A stretch of 25,609 nucleotides of DNA from a virus (taxonomy: Duplodnaviria > Heunggongvirae > Uroviricota > Caudoviricetes), in IMG/VR virus record IMGVR_UViG_3300045988_034843. The stretch is one strand, 5' to 3'. Position numbers and translations under genes: made by a program. The notes below the pieces were generated by a model. That model saw only the letters and a list, made by a program, of their open reading frames with translations. It made no database searches and was not told the DNA's origin. Position 1 is the first letter of the stretch. Every line of letters begins with the position of its first letter. Below, in pieces: positions 7,449 to 25,609 of this stretch.

Positions 7449-9251
7449 TTAACCTCTCAAGAAACACGCCACAGCGACATCAAACAGGCTGGAATCCTGT
7501 ATTGCCTGCTCACTTTCCCTGTTCGCTTCATCCAGTGCTTCACGCGCACTGCGCGATTGTGGATTACCATCATCATCCAGCACGGTGATTATCATGTCCG
7601 GAGATTCAAGCAGCGAGTCTTCAGCTATACGCAGATCAATATCTCCTGCCGGATCTGCCATCATTTTTTGTTCTGTCTGTTGCAATATCTTACCGGGCTC
7701 AAAAGGAGCTACTTCGTCTGGCGTCCTGACCTCTGCTGTTTTATAGAATGAAACAGCCTGAGTATTAAGTTCACTTTCAGCCTGCTGTCTCCGTGCCAGT
7801 TCTGCTCGAGCTTCAAAAAACTGACCGCCAGGCTCATGCGGTGCCAACGCGTTACGAGAAAATTCCAGGCGTTCTTGTGCCTGCCGGATTCGTTGGTCAA
7901 TATCGCGAAGTCTGGCCTGTTTATCTGATCGAGCACGAGATAAAGCCTTACCGCTACCGGCTGGATCTTCTGCAAGAATTTGTGCGCGCTGTTCAGTGAG
8001 ATTTTCAATAATTCGTTGGCTATTAGCGATTTCAGACTGGTAAACCTGTCTATCGCCACGCGGCAAAAGCTGCGCGGCCTGTTCTTCAAGCAACCGATTT
8101 TCTATAGCGCGCGCCGTTACTCCATCATCTACAGATGACAGAGCCTCATTAACTGCCTGAGACAGCAGACTCTTGCGTCCAGGAATTTCACTGAAAGATG
8201 CAGACTCAACAATGCTGGCAACGTCTACAGGTCTCCCCTGGCTAACATCAGACATGGCTTTTCGCAGAGCCTGAATGTGCGAATTACGCGAAAGCACGTT
8301 GATCGGCACGCCGGGAGCAATATCAATTTCAGCATGATGAGCGGCATTCGCCGCCAGTGCAGCATCGATATCAACTGGTGAAAAATTTGGTGCGCTTGTA
8401 GACTCGCCGCGAGAGTTAATAAATCTGCCGACACCACCAAACGCCACCCCAAGAACAGCATCAATAGCAATTGCCTGTCGATCCAACACATCATACTGGT
8501 TAGCCATTTCGCTATAGCCACCATCACGAAGCGTTTTTGCAGTAAGCCCACGCTGTGCCATACCGAACGCAATATTTGTACCTGCGGCATAGGCAATATC
8601 TGGCGTTGCACGTACTGCTGTTGCTGCGGCGCGTCGCACTGAACTTTCACCCGTCCGCGCAAGCTGAGCCGCCACACCTTCCGCCAGCGCACCACCAGCA
8701 CGTAACCCGAGGCTCATAGGGATCAGTGTTCCGGCACCAGCAGTAATACCCTGCACTAATCCCGCTTCCTGCGCCGTCCTGAAATCAACACCCTGTGCTG
8801 TCAGCCGTTCAAACTCAGAAAAACCCTGTAGAGAAGTTACCGCCGCAGCACCTCCGACCGGACCACCGAGCGTTGTACCGACAACAGCCTGCCCGCCCAT
8901 ATCGAACAACCCATAAAGAACCTGCCCGGCGGTTCCGGTTGTCGCGGCATCAGGCGTCAGCCGCTTAACCTGCTGTTCTGCTAGTTTTCTCTGCTCGGCA
9001 ATGTATGAAACTGAAGTATCATTGAGCGAGGTGTTTTCGTTAATAAACTGAGCAATCGGGGATACGATTTTATCCATCCCTGCCCATAGCAACTGATCTG
9101 GCTTTGCCACCAGCCCGGAGTACAAACCAGACAATGCCGCTCCTACAGCATTGTCGAAAAAACCAACATCGCTGTTAAAGCCCGCTGGATTTGATGCTGC
9201 TTCGTCAAGCTGCTGATTCTGGTTTACTGGATTAAGGCCAAAGTAACTCAT
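7449..9251 (-). CDS. Internal virion / ejection protein (600 aa)
   Basis: Track ORF; Ala/Gly-rich, start overlaps the upstream stop (translational coupling). Confidence 0.6.
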   Translation of the reverse strand: MSYFGLNPVNQNQQLDEAASNPAGFNSDVGFFDNAVGAALSGLYSGLVAKPDQLLWAGMDKIVSPIAQFINENTSLNDTSVSYIAEQRKLAEQQVKRLTPDAATTGTAGQVLYGLFDMGGQAVVGTTLGGPVGGAAAVTSLQGFSEFERLTAQGVDFRTAQEAGLVQGITAGAGTLIPMSLGLRAGGALAEGVAAQLARTGESSVRRAAATAVRATPDIAYAAGTNIAFGMAQRGLTAKTLRDGGYSEMANQYDVLDRQAIAIDAVLGVAFGGVGRFINSRGESTSAPNFSPVDIDAALAANAAHHAEIDIAPGVPINVLSRNSHIQALRKAMSDVSQGRPVDVASIVESASFSEIPGRKSLLSQAVNEALSSVDDGVTARAIENRLLEEQAAQLLPRGDRQVYQSEIANSQRIIENLTEQRAQILAEDPAGSGKALSRARSDKQARLRDIDQRIRQAQERLEFSRNALAPHEPGGQFFEARAELARRQQAESELNTQAVSFYKTAEVRTPDEVAPFEPGKILQQTEQKMMADPAGDIDLRIAEDSLLESPDMIITVLDDDGNPQSRSAREALDEANRESEQAIQDSSLFDVAVACFLRG

Positions 9252-11761
9252 TGCGGAATATCTCCGGAGAATCTCTGACGCTTCTGTGTCAGATCAAGAA
9301 CAACGGGAGAACCATCATCTTTTAGCAGATAACCAGTACCAAGTTTCACCAGGTACTGACTATCGCCGTAACTTTGCAAACCATACTGACCAGGCGGTGT
9401 TTTTATCCCTGTGCCAACAACTTGTTCATTCCAAGCCTGATTAACCTGCTTATCGAATTGCTCTGCAGACATTCCCCACGGCAAAAGAACATTCCCCATT
9501 CCGTTATAGTCATGCACGCCACCTGTAGCTACGTTAACAGCCTGTTTCCAGATATCATTGTCAATTTCGCCTGATACCACGCCTTTTTTCGCCATCACAC
9601 CAGCGTAATAGTCCTTTGCGATCTCGTATGCCATTGATGCCCCCTGAGCATCACCAGCAAATGCATCCTTAACCATGTCAGAAAACTCAAGGCGGAGATC
9701 AGCATCTTTAGGCATCGGAATACCTTTCGCGTCATCAGTACCTTTACGAGCCGCCGCGCCAGCAAGAATTGTCTGCGCAGCGGTTTCAGGAGACACGGAA
9801 ACATCCGGATTAAACCAGTTTTTTTCTGCCAAAATACCACCTGGCTTATCCATCAGTATCCCGGCAACGGCAGCAGATGGAGCGTTGGCACTGATCTGCT
9901 GTAGTGCTGACATATACACCTGCCCACCACCAGTGCTCTGCCTGATGGTATCGAGATATGCTGCCTGTTGGGAAACGGGCGCATCACGAAAGAAAACACC
10001 GATCTGATTGGCCTCGTCTTTGGAAAAGAACGTCAGTGGAGTGCCATATGACTTAGCAAGGTCACTGACCTGAGCAGCACGCAAGGCAACGCTCTGTCCA
10101 AAGTTATCCTTATTGCTCATGTCGATAGGCTTTGTCTGTCCTGCGGCAAGAGAGAACTGTACAGGATCAGCCTGTCGCTGCTTTATCACCTGACTTGCAG
10201 CCGACACAACGTTGTCATAAAGAGCGGCTCGTGCCGCATAACCCTCCCCTGTCTCACCAGTATCCGGGCGTAATTGCTCAACATATGCTGTAATGCTGCT
10301 TGTCGGCATGTTGCGGAAAGAGCCTATATACTGTCCGGCGATTTGCGTATTTCTGAACTCGGTATATCGCAGGTTTCCTTCTCTTACTCCATAAGCTGCA
10401 ATAAAATCAGCCTCACCAGGTGGGTTAGGAAATTCAACGCCACGCATATACGCAGCTGTCGCATCGCGAACCTGGCTGTCAATCATCGTTTTATATTCAG
10501 CCTGCTGCTGCCGACGCAGTTGATCCGCCTGTCGCATAAAACTTGCCTGCGCCTCAGGAGATGCCGCATCGAATGCTGCATTACCGGTATAGCGTTTGGT
10601 GTTGGTTGGAATTGTTGATAAACCAAGTGCTGCACTGACACCAGCAGTTAACTGCTGATCACTGTATGGCTGGCTACCGTTCTCATGATGGATAATGGCT
10701 GCACAAAGCGCCTTCAGGGTATCAGGATTAGATGCATCGAGAGGCTCATCAGCAGAAACGCCAAGTTGTTCGCACACTGCTTTGATATACGACATAGTGT
10801 CATTTTTATCAGCAGGCGGTGCCCAGCGATTAATTATCTCGCTGACGGTATCAATACCCTGCCTCTGATACGACATCAGGTTCCGCCCTAATGCACGAAT
10901 CCCGTGTTCAGGTGTTTCGAATTTAGCAAATCGACCATCATCACCGGTCTGGCCTACCCACGGATTAGTTTTGCTGTATTCGAGATTTCCTGGGTTATTG
11001 TTGCGTATGCCACGGGCACGCTCGGAAGAGTCACTATCTGCTACAGCACGGCGAGCTCCAGCAGCAGTATCACTTAACTCGCCATTACTTTGGATGAATG
11101 CGGTCGCATTGTTTGCCGACCACTGGGACAATGCAGCATCAGCAACCTTCTCTTTAAACTCGATTTTCTTGGCCTGGATTTGCTCGTTGCTCCAGCCATG
11201 TGCAACACCGTACTCCTCAATTTGCTGGAAAGTTTGTTTGTTAGCCAATACGTATGCGGCGTTGTCGCCATACAATGCTGCGGCATTTTTACCATTGTTC
11301 AGCAGTGTCGCCTGAAACTGGCCTTCTTCGTAGGCATTAATTTGCCCTATCTCGTGTCGCCCGGCCTGCGTAGTGAACTGAATGCGCTGCTGCTGCGCCT
11401 GCTGCATGAAAGCATTACGAGCCTGTTCATCCGGCAGCGACATAGCCAGTTGTTCGACCTGAGCATCAAACTGCTGCGTATACTCATGGCCTTTTCCAAT
11501 AGCATTTTTCCCTTTCAGGTTAAGCAATCCTGTTTCAGGATTATTCAGCAGATCGCTGCTTATCTGACTGAGGTTAAGAGATGCCTCCTGAGCCAGAGCA
11601 ATATTGGCACGCTGTTTTGCCTGCCCCAAAACATCAATTGCCTCTGTCCCTGCCCGAACAAAAGCATCACCAATACCTTGCTGAGAAAACGTCTGCAAGC
11701 CTGCTGACTGAACTCCACGACTCTCAACCTGACGTCCGGATACTGTTGGTACGACTGGCAT
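9248..11761 (-). CDS. Internal virion protein with possible cell-wall-hydrolase motif (837 aa from ATG 11761)
   Basis: Track ORF 9248-11836 trimmed to the ATG at 11761, which has a GGAGG RBS and overlaps the upstream stop as TAATG; contains GIRNNNPGNLEYSKTNPWVG...FETPEHGIRALGRNLMSY, which I recall as typical of phage virion-associated muralytic domains (unverified). Confidence 0.6.
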   Translation of the reverse strand: MPVVPTVSGRQVESRGVQSAGLQTFSQQGIGDAFVRAGTEAIDVLGQAKQRANIALAQEASLNLSQISSDLLNNPETGLLNLKGKNAIGKGHEYTQQFDAQVEQLAMSLPDEQARNAFMQQAQQQRIQFTTQAGRHEIGQINAYEEGQFQATLLNNGKNAAALYGDNAAYVLANKQTFQQIEEYGVAHGWSNEQIQAKKIEFKEKVADAALSQWSANNATAFIQSNGELSDTAAGARRAVADSDSSERARGIRNNNPGNLEYSKTNPWVGQTGDDGRFAKFETPEHGIRALGRNLMSYQRQGIDTVSEIINRWAPPADKNDTMSYIKAVCEQLGVSADEPLDASNPDTLKALCAAIIHHENGSQPYSDQQLTAGVSAALGLSTIPTNTKRYTGNAAFDAASPEAQASFMRQADQLRRQQQAEYKTMIDSQVRDATAAYMRGVEFPNPPGEADFIAAYGVREGNLRYTEFRNTQIAGQYIGSFRNMPTSSITAYVEQLRPDTGETGEGYAARAALYDNVVSAASQVIKQRQADPVQFSLAAGQTKPIDMSNKDNFGQSVALRAAQVSDLAKSYGTPLTFFSKDEANQIGVFFRDAPVSQQAAYLDTIRQSTGGGQVYMSALQQISANAPSAAVAGILMDKPGGILAEKNWFNPDVSVSPETAAQTILAGAAARKGTDDAKGIPMPKDADLRLEFSDMVKDAFAGDAQGASMAYEIAKDYYAGVMAKKGVVSGEIDNDIWKQAVNVATGGVHDYNGMGNVLLPWGMSAEQFDKQVNQAWNEQVVGTGIKTPPGQYGLQSYGDSQYLVKLGTGYLLKDDGSPVVLDLTQKRQRFSGDIPQ

Positions 11762-12306
11762 TATAATCCTCCGGGTAATCTGGTTCCTGCTGCTGCCCCG
11801 ATTGGCGCAGGAGTGCTTTGAGTAAACGGACTCCACGTCCCACCAAACATCTGGTACGCACCGTATGCCTTCAGAGGCGCAGTGAGCAATGTTGTTGCTG
11901 CTCCCACATTCCCCTGTTTACGGGCTGAACTGGCTTCTGCTTTATAGTTGGCAGCCTGAACCTGATAACCGTAAGCCTCGCGTTGCGCGTTATTCACCGT
12001 CGTCAGCGAATCAAGAGCGCCAAACTGGGCAGTGTCGCCAAATATATCCAGCGCGTTACCTGTAGATAAATCAGCGCCGGTAGCCCCCATTGTCGCCGCC
12101 TGTGTACCAAGCCGCTGTCGGGTCTCTCTGCGTCGTTGCTCAGCTTCAGCGTTACCTCTGTTTATTGCATCATTTGCCTGAGCTGTGGCTATATCTGCGT
12201 TCGCTTCTGCAACCTTCGAGGCATACTTTCCCTGTTGGTACTGGGTGTATGCCTGAATGCCACTCATGGCGAGCATTGCGCCACCAGCAATAACCGGATC
12301 GCACAT
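11761..12306 (-). CDS. Internal virion protein B-like, T7 gp14-like (181 aa)
   Basis: Track ORF; N-terminus MCDPVIAGGAMLAMSGIQAYTQYQ resembles the T7 gp14 N-terminus (MC..A.....SG.QA) as I recall it; TAATG coupling at both ends. Confidence 0.55.
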   Translation of the reverse strand: MCDPVIAGGAMLAMSGIQAYTQYQQGKYASKVAEANADIATAQANDAINRGNAEAEQRRRETRQRLGTQAATMGATGADLSTGNALDIFGDTAQFGALDSLTTVNNAQREAYGYQVQAANYKAEASSARKQGNVGAATTLLTAPLKAYGAYQMFGGTWSPFTQSTPAPIGAAAGTRLPGGL

Positions 12307-24297: not shown

Positions 24298-24309
24298 GTG
24301 ACATGTCAC
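24298..24309. repeat. 12-bp perfect palindrome GTGACATGTCAC (copy 3)
   Basis: Overlaps the stop codon of the gene at 24306-24644 and lies about 40 bp from the terminator at 24231-24256. Confidence 0.6.
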
Positions 24310-24644
24310 AATATTAATTTCGTTTCATGCCAGCCTTTAGTCACCCAGCATTGCGAGTCACCATTACACGGGCATGAATTCACAGGAACGCTCTCGCCGC
24401 ACTTACCGCAACGTTTTCTGCTGATCGATTTTATACGCCCGCGCACGCGTGCATCATCCTGGCGGATCAGTAACGCTATATACTCACCAAATTCGTAAGG
24501 CGCACGCCCGGGGCGACGCGTGGCACAGTTACGCTCAAGCATTTCAATTTCCTGAGCATCAAGCACAATCTCCAGCTTACGCACACCAGATGCAGCTTGT
24601 CTGGCTCTCTGAGCGGCTTTGCGCTCTGCTGCTGATTTAGCCAT
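24306..24644 (-). CDS. Small basic protein with C-terminal Cys cluster (112 aa)
   Basis: Internal ATG of track ORF 24306-24722 with AAGG 9 nt upstream; basic N-terminus MAKSAAERKAAQRARQAASGVRK; C-terminus CGKCGESVP...CPC...C resembles C4 zinc-finger regulators of the TraR/DksA type (tentative). Confidence 0.5.
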   Translation of the reverse strand: MAKSAAERKAAQRARQAASGVRKLEIVLDAQEIEMLERNCATRRPGRAPYEFGEYIALLIRQDDARVRGRIKSISRKRCGKCGESVPVNSCPCNGDSQCWVTKGWHETKLIL

Positions 24645-24670
24645 TGATTTAACCTTTATTGCGAACATAT

Positions 24671-24892
24671 TTATCTGTGTGTTGCCGATGTGCGGTGATT
24701 CTCTTCTATCAATTCCACGCATTCTGACCGACGAACAAATAATTCTTCTCCGTTATGAATTACGACATAGCCGTAAGCGGTTTTACGCATCACATCGAAC
24801 TCATCCCATACGGAAATACCACACTCTGCTAACGAGCAATCCAAATAATCTTCCGGATGCTTGTCGGTGTTATTAATGATGCGAATCCTCAA
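24671..24892 (-). CDS. Hypothetical protein (73 aa), TTG start
   Basis: Track ORF; AAGGTG RBS about 7 nt before a TTG start; an internal ATG start is an alternative. Confidence 0.4.
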   Translation of the reverse strand: MRIRIINNTDKHPEDYLDCSLAECGISVWDEFDVMRKTAYGYVVIHNGEELFVRRSECVELIEENHRTSATHR

Positions 24893-24922
24893 ATATTTTC
24901 ACCTTTGACGGCAAGTTGCAGG

Positions 24923-25501
24923 TTAGCCACGGTTAACCTCCTGCGGCGGTTCTGGCAGCGGCATCCAGTGGGTTACCTCCTTGAGATACAGGTCTTCGCC
25001 ACCACCGTCATCCCAAGTGGGCTTGCCATCATTAAACCAGTCGCCATATACGCCGACCTGAGTGTTGGGGATGCTTGGTGGGTAGTTGTTTTTAAAGTCA
25101 GCAGCTAACACATAGCATTGTCGCTCTCCCATTTCTGGCATTCGCTCACTACAGCTTATCCAACTATCCGGAGTTACCGGAGAGTTGCGCATTGCGACCT
25201 TTAATGCCTCATAGAAGCAACCTTTCAGATTGTTGAACTGACGCCCATTTAGCGGGCCATGTTCAGTCAGCATGTCGTGTAATTTCCATGCCGCGTCGTT
25301 TACTTCGTTGGATGACAGGGGAGGCAACTTGTAAGTTTGGCTTACAGGTTCTGCACTATCAGCTTCGCGCAGCTTCTGTAGCTCTGCTGCCATCGCTCTC
25401 ACGACTTCAACTGGTGCCCTTGCAGCAAACTCTATGTTGGTGATTAGCTCATTAAGATATTGCTCGCCTGGATACTGTTTCTTATCGGTTATAGTGGTCA
25501 T
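24923..25501 (-). CDS. DUF551-like phage protein (192 aa)
   Basis: Track ORF; GGAGAG RBS; C-terminal WISCSERMPEMGE...VTHWMPLPEPPQ matches the DUF551 pattern common in lambdoid prophage early regions, as I recall it. Confidence 0.65.
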   Translation of the reverse strand: MTTITDKKQYPGEQYLNELITNIEFAARAPVEVVRAMAAELQKLREADSAEPVSQTYKLPPLSSNEVNDAAWKLHDMLTEHGPLNGRQFNNLKGCFYEALKVAMRNSPVTPDSWISCSERMPEMGERQCYVLAADFKNNYPPSIPNTQVGVYGDWFNDGKPTWDDGGGEDLYLKEVTHWMPLPEPPQEVNRG

Positions 25502-25502
25502 A

Positions 25503-25609
25503 TCACTCTCCTTTGATGCGAATGCCAGTGGTACTCATTCTCCTGATTTCCCAGAGCACACGAGGAACACCACCGTTTCCGACCGGATCGCGTTTACTCC
25601 GCAGGGCGA
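25503..25609 (-). CDS. 3' end of an upstream gene (partial), unknown product
   Basis: Open minus-strand frame entering from the window edge and ending ...MSTTGIRIKGE at a TGA (25503-25505) that overlaps the RBS/ATG of the next gene. Confidence 0.35.
   Translation of the reverse strand, partial: ALRSKRDPVGNGGVPRVLWEIRRMSTTGIRIKGE

Follow-up and report, generated by a model that had tools for sequence, protein, structure and literature searches.

A viral DNA stretch of 25,609 nucleotides (nt), called the window here and recorded in IMG/VR as IMGVR_UViG_3300045988_034843 (Caudoviricetes), encodes an 837-amino-acid (aa) protein that we regard, with a probability of roughly 0.85, as a virion-associated peptidoglycan glycosidase used at entry by an epsilon15/phiV10-like temperate podovirus (Uetakevirus). 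A first-pass annotation of the window, made from its letters alone, had noted that a segment of this protein resembles virion-borne peptidoglycan hydrolases. Sequence matches, fold matches, and a Trp/Tyr/Glu active-site signature uphold that resemblance: judged by homology and predicted structure, the segment is a genuine Enc34/PHA02564-type peptidoglycan-degrading domain, with an activity predicted from that of family members. Family membership, fold, and an intact active-site signature are established in this analysis. The domain assignment accords with expected biology; a crystal structure and activity data are available for the family, and public annotations already hint at it. Residue numbers refer throughout to the 837-aa product starting at ATG 11761.

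An Enc34-Type Muralytic Domain

Searches of PDB sequences with phmmer aligned aa 249–398 with Gp29 (9vvp chain L, aa 3–146 of 1295; E = 5.6e-38) and with the Enc34 endolysin's catalytic domain (7q47; E = 2.9e-17), and a 13-sequence family profile improved these matches to 8.2e-56 (9vvp_L) and 5e-36 (7q47). When the predicted structure of the domain was compared by Foldseek, its fold matched the all-helical 7Q47 type resembling the lysozyme alpha-lobe, which is how the Enc34 ORF39 family, defined as PHA02564, has been described (PMC8943055); PM2 P5 has been placed in the same fold (PMC9502842). PHROGs named "endolysin" and "tail injection transglycosylase" match the domain region, and related domains also occur in PHROGs named "tail length tape measure protein". 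A first homologue search gave near-identical Escherichia coli prophage proteins only, and the deep alignment was built instead from an exhaustive HMMER search of representatives (50%-identity clusters), which returned 13,214 of them at E ≤ 1e-3 and 6,910 at E ≤ 1e-10.

Pfam-A and NCBIfam scans of the full 837-aa protein returned no relevant family, nor did a Pfam-A scan of the window domain and 39–40 short domain-bearing relatives. This silence arises because neither collection has a model for the Enc34-type family; the homology itself is present. The profile hidden Markov model (HMM) search of hydrolase families that the first-pass annotation had proposed as a check thus divided, negative in Pfam and NCBIfam and positive in the PDB-sequence, family-profile, and PHROG searches, and the lack of a hydrolase-family hit, which it had named as a counter-argument, would on Pfam and NCBIfam alone have told wrongly against the domain. 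The strings by which it had picked out the segment, GIRNNNPGNL (aa 251–260) and FETPEHGIRALGRNLMSY (aa 281–298), are correct; its range of residues 270–340 is displaced, the motif lying at about 250–300 and the domain at about 249–380.

In the epsilon15 record the homologous gp15 is labelled a "putative lytic transglycosylase", a name derived from an HHpred match to SltB (4anr). A GH23/SLT identity was rejected for the window domain: no SLT or transglycosylase match was obtained in Pfam or NCBIfam, and none appeared among the PDB sequence matches or the domain Foldseek matches.

Active-Site Signature and Predicted Activity

In the Enc34 endolysin, Trp79, Tyr95, and Glu131 constitute the presumed catalytic signature in the substrate groove, common to GH73 and GH23 enzymes (PMC8943055). 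Each has a counterpart in the window protein (W313, Y325, and E360; Table 1), conserved in 86%, 99%, and 100%, respectively, of 149 diverse cluster representatives, and 29 domain positions are at least 90% conserved in the same set, including RNNNPGN, AP, Y, and ENG. Salmonella phage epsilon15 gp15 is a homologue with 58.7% identity over 97% of the length and 83% within the muralytic domain, a difference that points to the domain being more strongly constrained than its flanks. These figures bear on the alternative of a remnant domain, structural or peptidoglycan-binding but without catalytic activity, in a protein acting as a scaffold or channel part only. While the activity of the 837-aa protein is predicted from relatives and the catalytic residues of the Enc34 family are themselves proposed ones, the presence of all three signature residues, the invariance of the Glu, the 29 conserved positions, and the higher identity of the domain to epsilon15 make such a remnant very improbable.

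Activity has been demonstrated for relatives. The isolated Enc34 ORF39deltaC domain is muralytic on permeabilised E. coli, P. aeruginosa, and Hafnia (PMC8943055), and M4LysdeltaTMD degrades purified peptidoglycan, yielding glucosaminidase-type and possibly endopeptidase products (PMC7143992). By analogy with what has been argued for Enc34 and M4Lys, the bond specificity of the window domain is probably N-acetylglucosaminidase-like.

Gene, Protein Architecture, and Homologues

Translation of the window confirms that the 837-aa open reading frame (ORF) placed by the first-pass annotation at 9248–11761 is real and lies on the minus strand (ATG 11761–11759, TGA 9250–9248); a plus-strand reading of the interval was rejected, its translation being full of stops. 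A mechanical ORF list takes the start upstream to a GTG at 11836, giving 862 aa. ATG 11761 is preferred because a ribosome-binding site is present and the start agrees with that annotated for PhiV10p18. The ATG shares a base with the TAA stop of the gp14-like gene upstream (TAATG, 11759–11765), and the TGA likewise runs into the start codon of the 600-aa gene downstream (ATGA, 9248–9253), an arrangement that suggests, from the sequence, translational coupling of the three genes.

The protein is matched over its full length by phrog_992. Its full-length AlphaFold2 (AF2) model has a predicted local distance difference test score (pLDDT) of 79.3 and is mostly helical, with disorder at aa 1–43 and 233–255. 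The N-terminal module (aa 1–242) is common to phrog_19141, phrog_36437, and phrog_10475 and is present in 31 of the 150 best domain-bearing representatives; at the other end, aa 637–837 match phrog_35810, and aa 399–837 have no match among PDB sequences. Of the same 150 representatives, 104 share the domain alone, 12 share only aa 1 to ~555, with the distal C-terminal part swapped, and 14 share the domain together with the N module and both C modules. The position of the domain also varies, from the N-terminus of short proteins to mid-chain in proteins of 700–1000 aa, which argues for a mobile module attached to many different backbones of virion proteins. Tandem copies occur in a group of relatives (P0136, P0141, and P0224), one 762-aa protein carrying four and two others (1337 and 1259 aa) carrying two.

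With PhiV10p18 of Escherichia phage phiV10, an epsilon15-like member of the genus Uetakevirus, the 837-aa protein shares 99.8% identity. By megablast, the whole window is ~97% identical to phiV10, phiv142-3, and O157 typing phages 9 and 10 over 80–86% of its length, with its ends (1–776 and 24305–25609) outside phiV10 coverage. The partial coverage indicates a close phiV10 relative or prophage rather than phiV10 itself, and the window could represent a prophage or a relative that is permuted differently. Most of the close E. coli prophage homologues have 935 rather than 837 aa, the main difference being an extra ~100 residues at the aa 243–248 linker. This insert (…GNINLFNRPSVKNEDGTISTVRTISIG…) corresponds to aa 243–346 of homologue P0011, directly before the muralytic domain; it has no match in Pfam or among PDB sequences and matches only phrog_19413, a PHROG of unknown function, weakly. 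Its insertion exactly at aa 243–248 marks the linker as a true module junction.

Table 1. Features of the 837-aa gene and of its neighbours, in window coordinates (nt)
Feature	Position	Strand	Remarks
837-aa ORF (stop included)	9248..11761	minus	Homologue of PhiV10p18 and epsilon15 gp15; virion / putative ejection protein
Shine-Dalgarno GGAGG	11768..11772	minus	6 nt upstream of ATG, read from sequence
N-terminal helical module, aa 1–242	11036..11761	minus	AF2 model; aa 1–43 predicted disordered, then long helices
Linker / module junction, aa 243–248	11018..11035	minus	Low-confidence, disordered; pLDDT <50 at aa 233–255
Enc34-type (PHA02564) muralytic domain, aa 249–380	10622..11017	minus	Sequence matches reach aa 398 = nt 10568
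W313 TGG codon	10823..10825	minus	Aligns with Enc34 Trp79; RWAPP motif
Y325 TAT codon	10787..10789	minus	Aligns with Enc34 Tyr95
E360 GAG codon	10682..10684	minus	Aligns with proposed catalytic Glu131 of Enc34 endolysin; HENG motif
C-terminal modules, aa 399–837	9251..10567	minus	AF2: mostly helical, small beta region near end; candidate channel-forming or assembly part
gp11-like tail protein, 202 aa	15849-15241	minus	phrog_394
gp12-like tail protein, 823 aa	15241-12770	minus	phrog_376
"Internal virion protein", 154 aa	12770-12306	minus	phrog_308; weak Pfam T7 Gp13 match
T7 gp14-family internal virion protein, 181 aa	12306-11761	minus	Pfam PF24072 T7_gp14; phrog_418 "internal virion protein"
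600-aa epsilon15 gp16 homologue	9251-7449	minus	Downstream; start overlaps 837-aa stop; candidate gp16-like ejection protein
824-aa epsilon15 gp17 homologue	7443-4969	minus	Downstream

Genomic Context and Location in the Virion

Pfam, PHROG families, and the phiV10 and epsilon15 annotation together show that the gene order around the 837-aa gene is that of T7 (tail tubular, gp13/gp14-like, then gp16-like), with the 837-aa gene occupying the gp15 slot. The anchor of this comparison is the 181-aa protein encoded immediately upstream, which matches Pfam PF24072 T7_gp14 (E = 2.5e-7; 31.2 bits, gathering cutoff 27); BLASTP of this protein against T7 gp14 gave nothing significant. Its lack of predicted transmembrane (TM) helices was unexpected. 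For the 154-aa gene, the epsilon15 counterpart, gp13, is annotated as an "acetyltransferase" from HHpred, which conflicts with the phrog_308 name "internal virion protein". In the 600-aa protein, just one 19-residue window, near aa 260, is strongly hydrophobic (Kyte-Doolittle mean 1.74), a segment that, as read from the sequence, fits a membrane-inserting gp16-like ejection protein; no 19-residue window above 1.5 was found in the 837-aa, 824-aa, gp13-like, or gp14-like proteins.

Gene order and protein properties lead us to infer that the 837-aa product is an internal virion protein. It lacks both a signal peptide and a TM helix (the Kyte-Doolittle mean stays at or below 1.02 in every 19-residue window), and phiV10 has a complete separate lysis cassette, located outside the window and comprising a holin, a GH19-like endolysin, and Rz/Rz1. 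These properties also bear on whether the protein could instead be a lysis endolysin, or a second endolysin, that works when infection ends and not at entry. The best-characterised members of the family, Enc34 ORF39 and M4Lys, are indeed lysis endolysins, and several of the matching PHROGs carry the name "endolysin"; however, those two enzymes have C-terminal TM domains (TMDs), whereas the window protein has neither a TM domain nor a signal sequence, is 837 aa long, and is encoded in a structural operon in apparent coupling with gp14-like and gp16-like genes. With a dedicated cassette present in phiV10 as well, a lysis role is the least probable of the readings considered here.

Where in the virion the protein would reside is less sharply defined by the literature. 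One review counts the gp14/15/16-like proteins of epsilon15, by synteny, among the ejection proteins, another assigns the epsilon15 core to gp17 alone, and genetic work known from a secondary citation (Guichard et al. 2013) is said there to place epsilon15 gp15 and gp17/16 in the tail packaging/injection device; the secondary sources thus disagree on the placement of gp15 and gp17. An active domain could accordingly belong to an external tail-hub or tail-tube component serving as a tail-tip lysin, a role with which the genetic placement, the assignment of the core to gp17, and the tape-measure and tail-injection names of PHROGs with related domains would agree. We nevertheless consider a tail location unlikely. 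The gp11-like and gp12-like proteins (phrog_394 and phrog_376), equivalents of adaptor and nozzle, are already encoded upstream, and for gp11 the epsilon15 record refers to T7 tail tubular protein A; the 837-aa gene itself stands in the T7 internal-protein slot, directly after the Pfam T7_gp14 gene, in keeping with the review that counts its epsilon15 counterpart among the ejection proteins.

Proposed Role at Entry

If the 837-aa protein is packaged as an internal protein, it would leave the capsid through the tail after adsorption, with or ahead of the DNA. The embedded domain would then cleave the glycan strands of murein locally, E360 acting as the general acid and W313 and Y325 positioning the substrate, and the opening so made could allow a trans-envelope DNA conduit to reach the inner membrane, as the transglycosylase of T7 gp16-N does. 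Mutants of that T7 transglycosylase are reported to be defective on stationary-phase or low-temperature cells (Moak and Molineux 2000, cited in PMC8954989). Packaging, ejection, and the timing of action in this scheme are suggested by gene order and by analogy with other podoviruses; our literature search found no paper reporting a zymogram of epsilon15 virions.

A more specific version of this scheme is tentative, and we think it doubtful. Here, epsilon15-like phages would have fused an Enc34-type N-acetylglucosaminidase mid-chain into a channel-forming ejection protein of the gp15 slot, hydrolysis would proceed from the nascent conduit, perhaps through a dual glycosidase/endopeptidase activity such as M4Lys is reported to have, and the linker would be a recombination hot spot tuning entry. 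Were it true, the breach of murein would come from hydrolysis inside this conduit, in place of a T7-type lytic transglycosylase, and the aa 243–248 linker would take up extra modules, of which the ~100-aa insert in the 935-aa variants would be an example.

Significance for Annotation

Homologues of the protein currently bear inconsistent database names, including "hypothetical structural protein", "head protein", "structural protein P5", "capsid and scaffold", and "putative lytic transglycosylase". Other existing labels come closer: the phiV10 record notes similarity to PM2 P5, and Kayfunavirus homologues are widely called "internal virion protein with endolysin domain". To these the present analysis adds a corrected family assignment, Enc34/PHA02564 in place of SLT-type transglycosylase, the limits of the domain, and a predicted catalytic residue, E360, at which murein crossing by epsilon15/phiV10-type phages can be tested. 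It also draws attention to a muralytic family of >13,000 clusters (50% identity) that is invisible to Pfam and NCBIfam, with the consequence that routine HMM annotation misses such virion-associated lysins. Taken by itself, the domain is a candidate enzybiotic module against Gram-negative bacteria. The current understanding of podovirus entry is unchanged.

Relation to Known Systems

The PHA02564 relatives of the domain include Enc34 ORF39 (7Q47), M4Lys of Salmonella phage BSPM4, and PM2 P5. Enc34 ORF39 and M4Lys are lysis proteins of ~26 kDa with a C-terminal TMD, encoded in lysis cassettes; unlike them, the 837-aa protein holds the domain mid-chain, without a TM segment, and is encoded among virion genes. 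The closest solved relative is Gp29 of Kayfunavirus (9VVP chain L), likewise a virion/ejectosome protein of an enterobacterial, T7-like podovirus; in Kayfunavirus coliphages this gp16-type protein bears the name "internal virion protein D / DNA ejectosome component" and has an endolysin domain. No publication was found for PDB 9VVP. The two proteins differ in the placement of the domain, which lies at the extreme N-terminus (aa 3–146) of the 1295-aa gp16-like Gp29 and at aa 249–380 of a gp15-slot protein here, and phmmer and profile searches detected no similarity between them beyond it.

T7 gp15, the periplasmic tunnel protein (7K5C, 6YT5), shares with the 837-aa protein its position after a gp14-like gene, a similar size, and a largely helical character, and chains of T7 gp15 were the two best Foldseek matches of the full-length model. 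Homology to T7 gp15 received no Pfam match, and hhalign of the full-length family alignment (A1) against T7 gp15 gave a probability of 0.3%; gp15-like proteins are generally paired by size and synteny only (PMC8954989).

A broader likeness extends to the N-terminus of T7 gp16 and to K1E/K1-5 gp35, phiKMV gp36, and A4 gp28, in each of which a presumed wall-cutting module is borne by an internal or ejected podovirus protein, with the protein that carries the hydrolase varying by lineage. The hydrolase domains of K1E/K1-5 gp35, A4 gp28, and PhiXacm4-11 gp34 have been proposed to open murein at entry, as is thought for T7 gp16-N. The modules themselves differ, T7 gp16 being a GH23/SLT lytic transglycosylase, whereas the domain described here has the permuted all-helical Enc34 fold, for which a glucosaminidase-like glycosidase activity has been argued.

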